Source: a virus
Taxonomy: Duplodnaviria > Heunggongvirae > Uroviricota > Caudoviricetes
IMG/VR virus record: IMGVR_UViG_2711768004_000013
Length of the DNA: 45,436 bases
Direction: 5' to 3' (one strand)
In this document: positions 39,201 through 45,436 of the stretch, piece by piece
How the letters are laid out: every line of letters begins with the position of its first letter
Numbering within the stretch: the first letter of the stretch is position 1
Program-made: the position numbers and the translations under genes
The notes under the pieces: model-generated
What the model saw: only the letters and a program-made list of their open reading frames with translations
Database searches by the model: none
Told to the model about the DNA's origin: nothing

Positions 39201-39665
39201 GCCAGCGCATCCAGTACGGATTTGGGGACGAAAACCACATCGTCGTTTGATTACGGCACTAAATCCACGAATAACACTGGTGCGCATACCCATAGTTTAA
39301 GTGGCAGCACGAATGCAGCTGGTAATCACAGCCATAGAGATGGCCGTCGATTTAACCCCAGTGTTTTTAAAGATACTTATCAATATGGTTATACAAGCTC
39401 AGGTCAAAATACCTGGGGTGTACAAGGCTCAGTAGGTATGTCTACGGGGTGGTTAGCGAATACCAGTATAGATGGTAATCATAGCCATTCACTGTCCGGC
39501 ACAGCAGCATCTGCAGGTGCACACGCGCATACTGTCGGTATTGGTGCTCATACGCACTCCGTTGCGATTGGTTCACATGGACATACCATCACCGTTAACG
39601 CTGCGGGTAACGCGGAAAACACCGTCAAAAACATCGCATTTAACTATATTGTGAGGCTTGCATAA
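36267..39665 (+). CDS. stf: side tail fiber protein (Stf-like)
   Basis: N-terminus [26 protein letters not shown] matches lambda Stf; long Ala/Ser/Thr-rich repeat region; C-terminal His-rich HxH repeats. Confidence 0.85.
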
Positions 39666-40249
39666 TGGCATTCAGAATGAGTGAACAACCACGGACCATA
39701 AAAATTTATAATCTGCTGACCGGAACTAATGAATTTATTGGTGAAGGTGACGCATATATTCCGCCTCATACAGGTCTGCCAGCAAACAGTACCTATATTG
39801 CACCGCCAGATATTCCGGCTGGCTTTGTGGCTGTTTTCAACAGTGATGAGGCATCGTGGCATCTCGTTGAAGACCATCGGGGTAAAACGGTTTATGACGT
39901 AGCGTCAGGGGACGCGTTATTTATTTCTGAACTCGGTCCGTTACCGGAAAATGTTACCTGGTTATCCCCGGAAGGGGAGTTTCAGAAGTGGAACGGCACA
40001 GCCTGGGTGAAGGATACGGAAGCAGAAAAACTGTTCCGGATCCGGGAGGCGGAAGAAACAAAAAACAGCCTGATGCAGGTAGCCAGTGAGCATATAGCGC
40101 CGCTTCAGGATGCTGTGGATCTGGAGATCGCAACGGAGGAAGAAAACTCGTTGCTGGAAGCCTGGAAGAAGTATCGGGTGTTGCTGAACCGTGTTGATAC
40201 ATCAACTGCACCTGATATTGAGTGGCCTGCGGTCCCTGTTATGGAGTAA
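39665..40249 (+). CDS. tfa: tail fiber assembly protein (Tfa-like)
   Basis: 194 aa immediately after stf with TAATG overlap; same length as lambda Tfa. Confidence 0.8.
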
Positions 40250-40320
40250 TCGTTTTGTGATATGCCGCAGCAACTTGTCATGGCAGGATACTGCGGCTGA
40301 TTTGTGAATTTAAATAGTGT

Positions 40321-40390
40321 NNNNNNNNNNNNNNNNNNNNNNNNNNNNNNNNNNNNNNNNNNNNNNNNNNNNNNNNNNNNNNNNNNNNNN
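40321..40390. other. assembly gap (N-run)
   Basis: 70 consecutive N. Confidence 0.95.
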
Positions 40391-40405
40391 TAATGGATTA
40401 CATAT

Positions 40406-41776
40406 CTATGATATCCCTGAAATGTCCTCTTCAAGCTCTTTTACTGATTTCGCAATTTTAAATTTAAATTTTCTCTCTATTTCACTATTGCTAAGTTTTT
40501 TTTCATTCTCTTTCCCTATCCACATAGAAACAATTTCTCGTTTCTGAGATATATGTAGATTGTCAAAGTTAGGTATGTATTTAAAAGTCTCCGCTCTACC
40601 CCTGCGGAGTTCATAGAAAGTTTTAATCAAAGACTTTGGTTTTATTTCTGATGAAAGGCCGAATCGGCGGATAAGATTATTGATCGTATGATTAACAGCT
40701 CGAAGTTGAGCTGTTGACGTTATTTGTGAGAAGTACGATACCCATCCCAATCGTTTACCTTCAAACACACATCCCGTAATTCTAAGATTTAGTTTCCACT
40801 GACAATATGCAACAGCTCGTTCTTTATCGCGCTTATTTTTAGCTTGTAGTAGAGCGTGTCTATATGCAGTAAAAATTTTTGCTAAGGATGACTCAAATCT
40901 AAGAATGCTCTCATGTTTTATCAATAATTCTCGATTTTTTATGTGGTAGCCCAAAAAGTTGAAACTTTCATCCAAGCTGCCTACTTTGGATTTTGAGTTC
41001 TCTTCATTTAATGGATGTGGGTTTAAATTTAATGATTGAAGCTTATCAATGATATGAGAAGCTATTTTTGTTGCTTGATATTTTGGTGTTAAAATAAGAA
41101 TGTCATCAACGTATCGCATGTACCATATGTCATGCATTTTATTGATTTCATCATCGAAATTAGATAGTGATATTTCAGCTAAAATGTTTGATATCGCTAA
41201 TCCCTGAGGTACTCCTCTGGTATTATTAGGGATACCTTTGCTTCCTGTGGTTCCACTTACAGTAGGCACGATTAATGATGATGTTATTAACTGTCTAATT
41301 TCTTTTTTTCTAATTTTATTTTTTATTGCATTAATTATCAATTTATGTTCAATTGAAGGATAGAAACTTTTAAGATCTATTTTTGCATATTCAGCATATA
41401 GACTGTTGTTTAATGCTTCTTTCAATGAGTCAATTACTGTATGTGGTAGTTTTAATCTGGACTTAGGATATATTTCCGTAAGGCATTCACAGAGAGCTCT
41501 AAGAGTAATTCTGTCCCTAGCAGTTGGTATGGAAATCTGTCTGGGTGTAGAGTTAGCGCCTTTAGATATTAATTTTTCTTTATATGCTGTAAATTTGTAA
41601 TTGCCAGAATTAACCTTTTCAAAAATGAAAGTGATCTCATTTTTTATTGTCAAATCAAGTTTTGATGGGCGAATCCGATCTATGCCAATCGCTCCTGATT
41701 CTTTGATTTTTTCAGAGTATACTTTTAGAAGATTTTTTTTCGAGAATGACTTTTTAAAAATTCTGCTTGCAGTCAT
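40406..41776 (-). CDS. reverse transcriptase (retron / group-II-like catalytic motifs; probable defence-associated RT)
   Basis: 456 aa from the ATG at 41776 (ORF track extends to a TTG at 41782); motifs in order: GIDRIRP, RQISIPTARDR, IDLKSFYPSI (motif A), GVPQGLAISNILAEI (motif B), YMRYVDDILIL (motif C, YVDD), FNFLGYHI (motif E), RITG in the thumb; AT-rich; overlaps the upstream membrane-protein gene by 23 nt. Confidence 0.8.
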   Translation of the reverse strand: MTASRIFKKSFSKKNLLKVYSEKIKESGAIGIDRIRPSKLDLTIKNEITFIFEKVNSGNYKFTAYKEKLISKGANSTPRQISIPTARDRITLRALCECLTEIYPKSRLKLPHTVIDSLKEALNNSLYAEYAKIDLKSFYPSIEHKLIINAIKNKIRKKEIRQLITSSLIVPTVSGTTGSKGIPNNTRGVPQGLAISNILAEISLSNFDDEINKMHDIWYMRYVDDILILTPKYQATKIASHIIDKLQSLNLNPHPLNEENSKSKVGSLDESFNFLGYHIKNRELLIKHESILRFESSLAKIFTAYRHALLQAKNKRDKERAVAYCQWKLNLRITGCVFEGKRLGWVSYFSQITSTAQLRAVNHTINNLIRRFGLSSEIKPKSLIKTFYELRRGRAETFKYIPNFDNLHISQKREIVSMWIGKENEKKLSNSEIERKFKFKIAKSVKELEEDISGIS

Positions 41777-42305
41777 AGTCAATCCAAAGATATATTAATG
41801 GGAGTATATAAAGTGCGGCAGTAATAAATATTCGAAGTAATATCCATAAAATAACAATTATTTTTTCTTTTTGTGTGGGGATCCTCGTCTTAAGTCCAAC
41901 TTGAGTTACCCTTGAAATTTTATCATCTATGTCACGGTGATTCTCAACCTCATTGAGCAAATTAAAATATTTTTCTTTCTGTTCAAGAGATAACTGTTGA
42001 CTGGTGGTAATGTCAAAATAGAGTCGCTGTAGTGCAATATAATTCCTTCTCATGGCTATTGCTCGACCACGAAAATCTAGGTTAGATACGATCAGAGAAA
42101 TACCCAGTAGAGCCACTGAAAGTATCGCCGCAACGACATCTGTATTATCTCCTAGAACCTTTGGAAATCGCAACGTTACAATTGAAAGTACCGCACTCAA
42201 TATAGCATACCAAACGAGGATAAATTGAGAGTGTTTTTCAAGCCATTCTAGTCGATGGTGCGCTTGGATACGTGCTTTATATGTAAACCAAATATTGTCA
42301 TGCAT
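41754..42305 (-). CDS. small multi-TM membrane protein (2TM / SLATT-like), putative effector of the RT system
   Basis: 183 aa; two adjacent hydrophobic helices near the N-terminus, a predicted helical soluble stretch, and a C-terminal hydrophobic helix; AAGGA 6 nt before the ATG at 42305. Confidence 0.6.
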   Translation of the reverse strand: MHDNIWFTYKARIQAHHRLEWLEKHSQFILVWYAILSAVLSIVTLRFPKVLGDNTDVVAAILSVALLGISLIVSNLDFRGRAIAMRRNYIALQRLYFDITTSQQLSLEQKEKYFNLLNEVENHRDIDDKISRVTQVGLKTRIPTQKEKIIVILWILLRIFITAALYILPLIYLWIDYDCKQNF

Positions 42306-42470
42306 AAAAGATCCTTTTTAAAAGCGGAAGGGGCAGGATATATTGGAACCGTTGAACATCCTGCCCGGCAGGATCAGTGAGCATAAGCTCAACAGTAAAA
42401 TATTACTGTTCATTATCAGAGCCGCCCTTGCATGCGCAAGAGGAAAAACCTGCCCCATCCCTTTGAATTA
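42306..42470 (-). ncRNA. candidate structured non-coding RNA / 5-prime leader of the RT operon (retron msr-msd-like or DRT-ncRNA-like)
   Basis: ORF-free interval with a possible promoter (TTGACT, 17 nt, TGTAATAAT on the minus strand), distal inverted repeats GGGGCAGG / CCTGCCCC, and several internal hairpins. Confidence 0.3.
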
Positions 42471-42527
42471 TTACAATTTAATGATCTTAAAGTCAATACA
42501 AGTGAATGGTGTCCAGAGATGATGAAC

Positions 42528-42776
42528 TTAATGAACAAACCACTCGTCAGCAGACTCCCAGGTATCTTTCAGAGTCTCCTGAACAAAAGTTTTAGCTGAA
42601 TCTTTATCAGCGGTGCGCGTAACAGAAAGGCCATCGTTGCTGGTGGCTTTTACGATCACTTCTACATCGTCATAACGTTTACTGATGCGTCGGGTTAATT
42701 CTTCCTTTAACGCATCCACAGCACCGGTTGGCATTTTAGTCATTTTTTCTTTGGCTATGCAGATTTCAATACGCAT
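42528..42776 (-). CDS. DinI-like DNA-damage-inducible protein
   Basis: 82 aa; [11 protein letters not shown]... and ...[16 protein letters not shown] parallel E. coli DinI; GGGGA Shine-Dalgarno; two LexA boxes in its promoter region. Confidence 0.8.
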
Positions 42777-42790
42777 AAAAGTCCCCTACA

Positions 42791-42834
42791 CTGTATTTGT
42801 ATACAGTATTATTTTTAACTGTATGGATAAACAG
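42791..42834. promoter_or_regulatory. two tandem LexA (SOS) boxes upstream of the dinI-like gene
   Basis: CTGTATTTGTATACAG (42791-42806) and CTGTATGGATAAACAG (42819-42834), both CTGT-N8-ACAG. Confidence 0.55.
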
Positions 42835-42836
42835 TG

Positions 42837-43934
42837 TCAAGAGGTCTTATTTCTGCTCCTTTGGAGTTCTTCAAAACGATTATGTAAAGATTTCGGATAC
42901 AGTTCGGTATATACCTGCCATAGCACGTTTAATGAACGATGCCCTGTAACCTGAGCGACTTCCTCAATACTAAAACCAGCCTCAAATAAGCGACTTGCCC
43001 CTTCTCTACGCAAATCATGGTATCTCAGATCTTTAATACCTAATTTGCTTCTTACCCTCTGAAATCCTGCGGTAACAGAAGTGCTGTTATATGGAAAAAT
43101 GAATTCTGATTTTTTGGGTTGTCGCTGGACGATATCCCAGGCTTCCCCAAGCAAGGCAACTTTCATATGGTTGCCTTCCTTTTTACGTGGATCTTTCCTG
43201 TCTCTTACTAGTATAGATTTTTGTTCCTGGTCGAGATCTTCCCATCGTAACCGGCATACTTCTCCGATTCGCATACAGGACCACACAGAAAATTTGAGGA
43301 TATCAACGAACGGAATTTTTGAGCATTTATGAGTAGATCGTTGTTGAAGGCCTTCAATGAGCATGTTCAGTTCATCAGATGCTGGTCTACGATTACGACG
43401 GTTTGATTTACCAATCAAACCGAGTTTAAGTAGATATGGACGAGCGCTTTTCGCCGGGTTTGATGTGTAATTGATTCCGTATACAGGTTTTGCCGCATCC
43501 AGAACACTGCCAAGATAACTAACATCGTGGCTGACTGTTGCTGGGCCTGCACCAGCGTTGTTTCTTAGCCTGCAATGTTCAATTACGTCATTTTCTGTCA
43601 GTTCAGATAGTTTGATCGCGGAGATGTCACTATCCATAAGCAGTTCCAGCACATATCTTTTAGTACGGCCTGCTTTACCTCCGGCATTTGGGTCATTTAA
43701 ATATTTGTGTAGTAAGTCACGGACTGTAAGTCCGTCAACAGCATTTGATGATGGAATGCCATATAGATCTAATTCCATCACTTTCTGTGCGCCCCATGTT
43801 TTGGCATGAGCATGTTTAGGGAATGTTTTGCTTTCCCTGTAAGTGATAACACCTTTTTCTTTGATAATCACATTACAGCGATAGCGTGGTGTGCCATCGG
43901 ATTTTAGTCGTTTCTCTATGTTATAGTACGCCAT
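42837..43934 (-). CDS. int: tyrosine integrase (dusA-associated type)
   Basis: 365 aa; C-terminal catalytic residues in HDLRREGASRLF, VTGHRS and LWQVYTE; immediately adjacent to dusA. Confidence 0.9.
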   Translation of the reverse strand: MAYYNIEKRLKSDGTPRYRCNVIIKEKGVITYRESKTFPKHAHAKTWGAQKVMELDLYGIPSSNAVDGLTVRDLLHKYLNDPNAGGKAGRTKRYVLELLMDSDISAIKLSELTENDVIEHCRLRNNAGAGPATVSHDVSYLGSVLDAAKPVYGINYTSNPAKSARPYLLKLGLIGKSNRRNRRPASDELNMLIEGLQQRSTHKCSKIPFVDILKFSVWSCMRIGEVCRLRWEDLDQEQKSILVRDRKDPRKKEGNHMKVALLGEAWDIVQRQPKKSEFIFPYNSTSVTAGFQRVRSKLGIKDLRYHDLRREGASRLFEAGFSIEEVAQVTGHRSLNVLWQVYTELYPKSLHNRFEELQRSRNKTS

Positions 43935-43953
43935 TACACGACCTCGTTATTTC

Positions 43954-43989
43954 GGGTTCCCATAAAGCGTGGGAACCTGTGCGGGAACC
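43954..43989. repeat. GGGAACC direct repeats with one inverted copy in the int-dusA intergenic region (possible recombinase or regulator binding sites)
   Basis: GGGTTCCC at 43954-43961, then GTGGGAACCT and GCGGGAACCT at 43969-43990. Confidence 0.3.
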
Positions 43990-44022
43990 TAACGCGAGAA
44001 AAATAGCCTGAAATGTTCAAAA

Positions 44023-45060
44023 ATGCACGATAATCCTGAAACACAGAAAACTAATCAAACCAGCGTGATGCCTGAAAAAACTGGCGCTTACTGGAGTTCT
44101 CGGTTTAGCATTGCTCCTATGCTCGACTGGACGGACAGACATTGCCGCTATTTCTTGCGTCTGCTTTCCCGCAATACGTTGCTGTATACCGAAATGGTGA
44201 CCACAGGGGCGATTATTCACGGTAAAGGTGATTACCTGGCGTACAGTGAAGAAGAACATCCGGTAGCGTTGCAACTCGGCGGTAGCGATCCGGCGGCGCT
44301 GGCACAGTGTGCGAAGCTGGCAGAAGCGCGTGGATATGATGAGATCAACCTGAATGTCGGCTGCCCGTCTGACCGGGTGCAGAACGGCATGTTTGGTGCG
44401 TGTCTGATGGGTAATGCGCAGCTGGTTGCCGACTGCGTGAAAGCGATGCGCGATGTGGTGTCGATTCCAGTGACGGTGAAAACGCGTATTGGCATCGATG
44501 ACCAGGACAGCTATGAATTTCTCTGCGATTTCATCAACACCGTTTCCGGCAAAGGCGAGTGTGAGATGTTTATCATCCACGCACGTAAAGCCTGGCTTTC
44601 GGGGTTAAGCCCGAAAGAAAACCGTGAAATCCCGCCACTCGATTATCCGCGTGTGTATCAACTGAAGCGTGACTTTCCGCATCTGACAATGTCGATTAAC
44701 GGTGGTATCAAGTCGCTGGAAGAGGCCAAAGCACACCTGCAACATATGGATGGCGTGATGGTCGGGCGCGAGGCGTATCAGAATCCGGGTATTCTGGCGG
44801 CGGTAGACCGGGAGATCTTTGGTTCCTCGGATACCGATGCCGATCCGGTGGCGGTAGTGCGCGCCATGTATCCGTACATTGAGCGTGAACTCAGCCAGGG
44901 GACGTATCTCGGCCATATTACCCGGCATATGTTGGGCTTGTTCCAGGGTATTCCTGGCGCGCGGCAGTGGCGGCGTTATTTAAGTGAAAATGCCCATAAA
45001 GCGGGTGCAGACATTAATGTGCTGGAACACGCGCTCAAACTGGTGGCGGATAAGCGTTAA
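44023..45060 (+). CDS. dusA: tRNA-dihydrouridine synthase A
   Basis: 345 aa with the conserved ...[16 protein letters not shown]... region and active-site context NLNVGCP; recognisably E. coli DusA. Confidence 0.9.
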
Positions 45061-45142
45061 CTTTTCACCAAAAAGTAGTCAAATTCACCACGCCCTGCGC
45101 ACCGTCGCGGGGCGTTTTGCTGTTAAATCAATAGATTATTTT

Positions 45143-45158
45143 TGGCATGATTCTTGTA
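45143..45158 (+). promoter_or_regulatory. putative sigma-54 promoter of pspG
   Basis: TGGCATG-ATTC-TTGTA fits the -24/-12 pattern TGGCACG-N4-TTGCA at 10 of 12 positions. Confidence 0.4.
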
Positions 45159-45193
45159 ATGCCAGCAAGAGATTTCATATTTGGGAGAGCATC

Positions 45194-45436
45194 ATGCTGG
45201 AACTACTTTTTGTGATTGGCTTTTTTGTCATGCTGATGGTCACCGGCGTTTCGTTGCTGGGCATTATCGCCGCGCTGGTTGTGGCGACGGCCATTATGTT
45301 CCTCGGCGGTATGCTGGCATTGATGATTAAGTTGCTGCCGTGGTTACTACTGGCGATTGCGGTGGTGTGGGTTATTAAGGCGATTAAAGCACCAAAAGTG
45401 CCGAAATATCAGCGTTATGACCGCTGGCGTTACTAA
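45194..45436 (+). CDS. pspG: phage shock protein G
   Basis: 80-aa very hydrophobic protein; sequence and position downstream of dusA match E. coli PspG. Confidence 0.85.
   Translation: MLELLFVIGFFVMLMVTGVSLLGIIAALVVATAIMFLGGMLALMIKLLPWLLLAIAVVWVIKAIKAPKVPKYQRYDRWRY

Follow-up and report, generated by a model that had tools for sequence, protein, structure and literature searches.

The 45,436-nucleotide stretch of viral DNA analysed here (IMG/VR record IMGVR_UViG_2711768004_000013; hereafter the window) carries on its minus strand an interval, 42306-42527, that is bounded by the stop codon of a DinI-family gene on one side and by the first codon of a SLATT_5 gene on the other, and that very probably encodes a non-coding RNA (ncRNA) belonging to the anti-phage system DRT10. 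Directly downstream of the ncRNA, the SLATT open reading frame (ORF) and the ORF of a reverse transcriptase (RT) overlap on the same strand (Table 1). The RT is matched end to end by the PADLOC model RT_UG17, with Drt3a (130 bits), Drt2 (85 bits) and Drt9 (69.4 bits) as the runners-up. Its ORF begins at a TTG at 41782, and RefSeq and Tang et al. use an ATG two codons further on (41776), which gives a protein of 456 amino acids. A scripted check against the numbering of the Eco3 system found the catalytic YVDD, R371, K385, Y388 and the C-terminal S456 all retained, and a hand count in the translation found N197 kept as well; the C-terminus reads ...DISGIS, its last residue being S456 in the numbering of Tang et al. 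In the published work R371, K385, Y388 and N197 serve to anchor the RNA or to contact the template. The window holds an intact natural DRT10 copy on a prophage-like element beside dusA. An earlier note on this DNA had described the interval as a structured leader upstream of an RT operon and had offered three readings of it: a retron msr-msd-like template, a DRT-type ncRNA, or no more than a regulated leader.

The second of these readings is the one that held, since the RT is UG17/DRT10 and the interval is in register with the published numbering of the Eco3DRT10 ncRNA. We are highly confident that the interval encodes, along with a promoter of its own, the ncRNA of an Eco3-type DRT10 (UG17) system. 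Tang et al. 2025 (PMC12632851) described DRT10 as a tripartite defence system of ncRNA, SLATT and RT; in Eco3DRT10, RNA immunoprecipitation sequencing (RIP-seq) recovered an RT-bound RNA of 137 nucleotides (nt) upstream of SLATT, deletion of the ncRNA abolishes defence, and RNA plus RT are sufficient for repeat synthesis in vitro (PMC12632851). The element in the window is therefore already known as a kind, being a natural allele of the best-studied example.

The proteins and the RNA both point to this identity. Compared with the Eco3 sequences in Table S1 of PMC12632851, the RT differs at 8 of 398 compared residues (98.0% identical, start codon excluded) and SLATT is identical at 178 of 183 residues (97.3%). 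Eco3DRT10 (from E. coli 703491) has the same gene order of promoter, ncRNA, SLATT and RT. To anchor the RNA comparison we used the individual nucleotides that the papers name, together with natural alleles bearing the Eco3 template, which a pattern scan had turned up; the RNA ends were taken over from the 137-nt species that RIP-seq had shown for Eco3, the published system with 98% identity. With nt 1 placed at 42460, 13 of the 14 published identities agree (U43, G44, G86, G104, U105, U106, C107, G111, C116, A117, U119, A120 and U123), the sole mismatch being U110, which is C in the window. The two RNAs share the 137-nt register, five stem-loops (SL1 to SL5), a linker of 4 nt between SL1 and SL2, a 19-nt loop B with its UU and AUAU linkers, the guanines G86 and G104, and the cytosines C107 and C116.

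The predicted RNA is strongly structured. Folded as minus-strand RNA, the interval reaches -59 kcal/mol, against -42.6 +/- 4.0 kcal/mol for dinucleotide shuffles (z = -4.05), and none of 200 shuffles was as good. A basal stem, SL1, closes four hairpins (SL2 to SL5) and two loops, A and B, and much of this framework can be recognized in the elements that the earlier note had picked out. Its two inverted repeats, GGGGCAGG (42330-42337) and CCTGCCCC (42449-42456), are present and extend to 12-nt arms that are 92% complementary; read there as 8-base-pair (bp) retron a1/a2 repeats, they are real as repeats but lose that role and become the core of the 12-bp basal stem SL1. The hairpins CTTGC-ATGC-GCAAG (42427-42440) and CAGTA-AAATAT-TACTG (42393-42408) are both present and form the top of SL2 and SL3, respectively, and the direct repeat GGCAGGAT (42332-42339 and 42367-42374) with its complement ATCCTGCC (42358-42365) is likewise real, the palindrome being SL5. 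The fourth internal hairpin, SL4 (42379-42390), was absent from that note.

In an RT-based genome scan, which supplies the comparative evidence, full loci with RTs 57-83% identical came from Xenorhabdus, Photorhabdus, Buttiauxella, Pseudomonas and Stutzerimonas, 14 in all. All 14 of these non-E. coli loci have a SLATT gene ahead of the RT and an alignable upstream region, and with Escherichia sequences they make up the alignment of 17 loci (Escherichia, Xenorhabdus, Photorhabdus, Buttiauxella and Pseudomonas/Stutzerimonas) on which the following counts are based. The RNAalifold consensus consists of the same five helices, and 15 of its 35 pairs show compensatory double changes. Paired cells amount to 98.5%, compared with 48-54% when the 3' partners are slid by 1-3 columns, and there are 56 double-change cells as against 4-8 in the slid versions; the observed covariation score was reached by none of 500 shuffles. 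When the 14 non-E. coli loci alone were used to build a covariance model, its single match in the window lay at 42323-42462 on the minus strand (124.3 bits, E 6.1e-27). Folding and covariance analysis across homologous loci, which the earlier note had named as a check, thus uphold a structured RNA whose fold has been kept through covariation. The note's description of the interval as ORF-free is correct only as an approximation, mechanical ORFs of 28-59 amino acids crossing it on both strands. Substitutions there follow the pattern of paired RNA and not that of codons.

Table 1. Features of the DRT10 locus in the window; positions in the RNA are given as nt n, where window coordinate = 42461 - n.
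Feature	Coordinates	Strand	Basis
DRT10 (UG17) ncRNA, Eco3 type, 137 nt (very probable)	42324..42460	-	Covariance-model match and register with published numbering
SL1 5' strand, nt 1-12, GGAUGGGGCAGG; includes CCTGCCCC	42449..42460	-	8 of 11 SL1 pairs compensatory across 17 loci
SL1 3' strand, nt 124-135, CCUGCCCCUUCC; includes GGGGCAGG	42326..42337	-	Inverted-repeat scan and covariation
SL2, nt 17-39; top is the CTTGC-ATGC-GCAAG hairpin	42422..42444	-	9 pairs, 3 compensatory, 98.7% paired
Loop A, about nt 40-50/51, CUCUGAUAAUG	42411..42421	-	U43 and G44 agree with published identities
SL3, nt 51-70, AT-rich hairpin CAGTA-AAATAT-TACTG	42391..42410	-	6 pairs, 100% paired, 2 compensatory
SL4, nt 71-82, GAGC-UUAU-GCUC	42379..42390	-	4 pairs, 100% paired, 1 compensatory
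SL5, template-boundary stem-loop, nt 87-103, AUCCUGCC-G-GGCAGGAU; flanked by G86 (42375) and G104 (42357)	42358..42374	-	Covariation; boundary role from the literature
Loop B, nt 105-123, 19 nt: 5' linker UU, template, realignment site, 3' linker AUAU	42338..42356	-	Length and linkers equal to published Eco3
Template A-B, nt 107-115, CAAC-GGUUC, CAACGGUUC	42346..42354	-	Register with Eco3 C107-C115
A' realignment site, nt 116-119, CAAU	42342..42345	-	CAA 116-118 invariant in 17 loci; role of C116 from the literature
Sigma-70-like promoter of the ncRNA: -35 TTGACT (42496-42491), 18-nt spacer, TG-extended -10 AATAAT (42472-42467)	42467..42496	-	Promoter scan, 10 of 12 matches
Spacer between ncRNA and SLATT: U-run, putative Shine-Dalgarno AGGA (42315-42312), then ATG at 42305	42306..42323	-	Sequence reading, presumptive
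SLATT_5 two-transmembrane effector gene, 183 amino acids	41754..42305	-	Pfam SLATT_5 E 1.3e-28; PADLOC RTasSLATT E 1.5e-56; NCBIfam SLATT_5 136 bits
UG17/DRT10 RT, ORF of 458 amino acids from TTG	40406..41782	-	PADLOC RT_UG17 526.6 bits, E 1.1e-158
DinI-family gene	42528-42776	-	Pfam DinI E 1.1e-19

Within the consensus, several positions in and beside the presumed template loop are invariant. G86, G104, the UU linker and the triplets CAA 107-109 and CAA 116-118 are the same in every sequence of the alignment, and the B segment between the triplets varies. A (U)CAA...(U)CAA motif with a period of 9-10 nt occupies the equal loop position in 17 of 17 loci; in the window it reads CAA-CGGUUC-CAA (nt 107-118) inside a loop B whose sequence is UUCAACGGUUCCAAUAUAU. 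Invariant CAA triplets around a variable B are exactly the pattern predicted by the published A-B-A' mechanism, in which a 9-nt loop template is copied repeatedly into tandem-repeat single-stranded DNA (ssDNA) as the end of the complementary DNA (cDNA) copied from A re-anneals on A' (PMC12632851).

Published work on Eco3 supplies the other parts of that mechanism. The RT uses the serine at its C-terminus, S456, as primer and not the 2'-OH of a branching guanosine, and mutants show that an altered fourth base of A is tolerated and that 3 nt of homology are enough (PMC12632851). Cryo-electron microscopy by Ramirez et al. 2026 (10.64898/2026.06.29.735271) revealed two RT monomers per ncRNA; the template window is set by the distance from SL5, where R371 contacts G86-G104 with U105-U106 as linker, and from SL1, with A120-U123 as linker, and G86-G104 is a Hoogsteen pair at the base of SL5 (10.64898/2026.06.29.735271). 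Synthesis begins opposite C116, which templates the first nucleotide (dGTP), and loop A, bound by the second RT monomer, yields short abortive cDNA only (10.64898/2026.06.29.735271).

By analogy with Eco3, the window RNA would be transcribed constitutively from its own promoter and one ncRNA would be bound by two RT monomers, of which the loop-B monomer would, opposite C116, attach dG to the hydroxyl of the serine at its C-terminus. The RT would then copy from C115 back to C107 and be halted two nt short of SL5 by the contact of R371 with the G86-G104 pair, after which the nascent 3' end, ...GTTG, would unpair and re-anneal on A' (CAAU, nt 116-119) through three Watson-Crick pairs and a dG-rU wobble, and the cycle would repeat. 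The expected product is a kilobase-long, protein-linked ssDNA, predicted to be (GAACCGTTG)n for the window allele. The repeat DNA is thought to act via the SLATT membrane effector; the literature proposes that it does so by direct binding or, alternatively, by gating that runs through host SbcB and a phage SSB-like protein.

The window allele departs from Eco3 in its template, which is CAAUGAUUC in Eco3 and CAACGGUUC in the window, the two differing at nt 110 and nt 112. Eco3 makes the repeat GAATCATTG, as against the predicted GAACCGTTG. In Eco3 the A/A' homology is a perfect CAAU, whereas in the window it is CAA plus a G-U wobble, and loop B contains one guanine in Eco3 but two (G111 and G112) in the window.

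This difference is not peculiar to the window. Among 5,426 complete E. coli genomes, 188 carry the ncRNA, in each case on the chromosome and without a RefSeq annotation, and short diagnostic queries divided the 188 carriers cleanly into two template alleles: 154 have CAACGGUUC, as in the window, and 34 have CAAUGAUUC, as in Eco3. Among these genomes the commoner template allele is therefore not the experimentally studied one, a small addition to what is published. Three natural copies with the Eco3 template, one in E. coli CE10 (L019) and two on IMG/VR contigs (L023 and L027), differ from the 137 nt of the window only at nt 110 and nt 112, apart from one further change, in the loop of SL2, in the CE10 copy. 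In the remaining E. coli variants the changes fall in loops (nt 27 and nt 96) or at nt 12, in the uppermost pair of SL1. Both L023 and L027 retain an intact Eco3-type ncRNA, but their SLATT is interrupted by an in-frame stop at codon 23 and the 3' end of their RT gene is disrupted, and the system appears to be decaying in both.

Several points weigh against the assignment of an Eco3-type template RNA, or at least against its details. Expression, RNA ends, product and phenotype of the window allele are all carried over by analogy from a system 98% identical to it. The template differs from the one tested in Eco3 at the two positions named above, which leaves 3 nt of perfect A/A' homology, so that the repeat unit and its precision are predictions. 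The window allele also has a second direct repeat, GUUC(104-107)/GUUC(112-115), created by A112G, with a period of 8 and overlapping the CAA/CAA register. The set used for covariation is modest, at 17 sequences, several of them closely related. Lastly, infection raises the cDNA level according to one of the two experimental groups and lowers it according to the other, which leaves the effector step disputed (PMC12632851; 10.64898/2026.04.29.721553).

We considered the GUUC/GUUC register, which would give the repeat (CGTTGAAC)n, as the working A/A' pair and rejected it as the main register. It needs read-through past the C107 boundary, and of the 17 sequences only six have it, three from E. coli, one from Xenorhabdus and two from Photorhabdus, compared with an invariant CAA/CAA; the GUUC/GUUC repeat could matter only if the RT reads past that boundary.

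Given the two template alleles, the repeat DNA could have a sequence that is a target of selection in its own right, and not a neutral one as published mutagenesis suggests; this is the one reading here that goes beyond the literature. We think this unlikely, and two template differences are too few for an argument from selection. One possibility under that idea is that the repeat is read by SLATT, by SbcB, or by a phage ssDNA-binding or anti-defence factor. In a weaker variant, the extra GUUC/GUUC repeat and a 9-bp alternative helix (described below) might alter the length of the repeat or processivity.

The alternative helix bears on the regulated-leader reading, according to which the RNA is a cis-acting 5' leader only, of the attenuator or riboswitch kind, that regulates SLATT-RT through alternative hairpins and has no template role. 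The RNA does occupy the 5' leader position of the SLATT-RT operon: it lies between the promoter and the SLATT start codon with no other promoter-like site between, and a U-run follows SL1. The mutually exclusive stems proposed in the earlier note also exist in the window sequence, where 42331-42339 and 42358-42366 (the 3' strand of SL1 and the 3' arm of SL5) can form a perfect helix of 9 bp that competes with both SL1 and SL5. This helix is, however, without comparative support: across the 17 loci it is 65.5% paired versus 63.5% in shuffles (56 of 500 reach the observed value) and is matched by a slid control. We treat it as a by-product of the CCUG/CAGG core common to SL1 and SL5 in the enterobacterial lineage, and not as a switch. 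Moreover, the features that are conserved (G86, G104, the UU linker and the two CAA triplets) are those for RT binding and templating, and the near-identical Eco3 RNA is RT-bound and, with RT, sufficient for repeat synthesis in vitro. Regulation as the main function is not supported and we judge a leader without a template role to be very unlikely; a leader role additional to the template role is possible.

The retron reading takes the flanking inverted repeats as a1/a2, with RT priming from a branching guanosine to yield multicopy ssDNA, and in its favour an inverted repeat does flank a structured RNA upstream of an RT operon and the RT is weakly similar to NCBIfam retron_St85_RT (E 6.8e-16). 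That match scores only 58.4 bits against a cut-off of 235, compared with 526.6 bits for UG17. There is no long msd hairpin, the interior consisting instead of four conserved hairpins of 4-9 consensus pairs and two loops; a SLATT gene intervenes between the RNA and the RT, and the C-terminal serine that serves protein priming in Eco3 is kept. A scan of 39500-45436 against Rfam 15 returned no match at E <= 1 within 42306-42527. A retron is, on this evidence, extremely improbable. Equally improbable is the template RNA of another class 2 DRT, either a DRT9-like homopolymer template or one for DRT2-like rolling-circle gene synthesis: the overall folds of the published DRT10 and DRT9 ncRNAs are similar and the RT has weaker matches to the Drt9, Drt2 and Drt3a models, but these reach 69, 85 and 130 bits against 526.6 for UG17, loop B is without a U-tract (its longest U run is 2), 137 nt are too short for a DRT2-type template of ~120 nt plus an RT-binding structure, the CAA triplets stand 9 nt apart, and the system has a SLATT_5 partner and 98% identity to Eco3DRT10.

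The promoter that forms part of the DRT10 assignment had been proposed in the earlier note as TTGACT followed, after 17 nt, by a -10 hexamer. It was recovered at 42496..42467 on the minus strand, with a spacer of 18 nt in our scan and a TG-extended AATAAT as the -10 element. Promoter-like sites are not enriched across the region (13 versus 10.5 expected), and the scan found no other such site between this promoter and the SLATT start codon. The assigned nt 1 of the RNA (42460), the presumed transcription start, is 7 nt past the -10 hexamer. In 15 of 15 loci from several genera, a -10-like hexamer stands 4-7 nt ahead of the equivalent RNA start, which fits a dedicated promoter.

Sanchez-Nieto et al. 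2026 split UG17 into three subtypes whose ncRNAs are specific to each subtype, and UG17 ncRNA covariance models work within subtypes only (10.64898/2026.04.29.721553). The UG17-A ncRNA (Escherichia sp. E3659, 10.64898/2026.04.29.721553) and the Eco1 and Eco2 DRT10 systems share with the window the tripartite design, a basal SL1 that is needed for RNA stability, an ncRNA that lies upstream of SLATT and is independently transcribed, and a short template, with a repeated motif on either side, that is copied into tandem-repeat cDNA. They differ in having an ncRNA sub-family of their own, with six stem-loops, about 143 nt and repeats of 7 nt or 8 nt. The E3659 probe sequence was not seen in the window interval by eye, no tool search being run for it.

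Among more distant systems, telomerase RNA also combines an internal template that is short, a 3' alignment segment with the same sequence as the template's 5' end, and a helix that sets the 5' boundary. In contrast to telomerase, DRT10 primes from a protein serine and not from a chromosome end, its 456-amino-acid RT binds RNA 2:1, its product is free protein-linked ssDNA for immunity, and the RNAs share no sequence homology. What makes DRT10 notable, as described in work published in 2025-2026, is that its bacterial RT goes through a telomerase-like cycle on a short internal template in the RNA and so produces tandem-repeat DNA. The DRT9 (UG28) ncRNA likewise has a multi-hairpin fold closed by a basal stem and serves a protein-primed class 2 UG RT, but its template is a conserved U-tract copied into poly-dA in a hexamer complex, unlike the UG17 RT and the loop B of the window. 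Retron msr-msd resembles the window RNA as a structured ncRNA with terminal inverted repeats beside a defence RT; the window RT belongs to another clade, and its RNA has neither an msd hairpin nor branching-G priming, with iterative 9-nt copying in place of a single multicopy single-stranded DNA.

The value of the present result lies mainly in annotation, as the RNA is unannotated in RefSeq in all 188 carriers and the DRT10 ncRNA appears to be without a model in Rfam 15. It also shows that a first-stage reader given only raw sequence can single out genuine template RNAs of defence RTs.

The genomic setting of the system varies among the copies. In the window and in E. coli AR434 (L017), a block of dinI, ncRNA, SLATT, RT and tail-fibre genes stands beside an integrase at dusA, and in E. 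coli MS6192 (L016) the same block stands beside prfC, with dinI frameshifted. The two placements indicate that the cassette travels on related prophages with different insertion sites. A BLAST search of the GenBank phage collection gave no match to the ncRNA-SLATT-RT block. Eleven viral contigs carried the exact Eco3 19-mer GATGTTCAATGATTCCAAT, and nine of them (L021, L022, L024-L026 and L028-L031) were dropped, the 19-mer lying there in an unrelated, mutually homologous coding region; short template-loop patterns are thus not specific search keys.

Two further observations concern the neighbouring genes. Just upstream of the dinI-like gene are two LexA-box-like sites (CTGT-N8-ACAG) at 42791-42806 and 42819-42834, and the whole window has 4 such sites versus 0.58 expected. 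Our scan found no terminator-like site between dinI and the ncRNA promoter, so that transcription induced by the SOS response could conceivably run on from the LexA-boxed dinI-like gene into the DRT10 locus. Finally, on the far side of the RT gene, Rfam IS009 (RF02111) matches 40008-40206 on the plus strand (219.5 bits, E 1.4e-54); the match lies wholly within the tail-fibre-assembly ORF at 39665-40249 and probably reflects conserved prophage coding sequence and not a separate small RNA.

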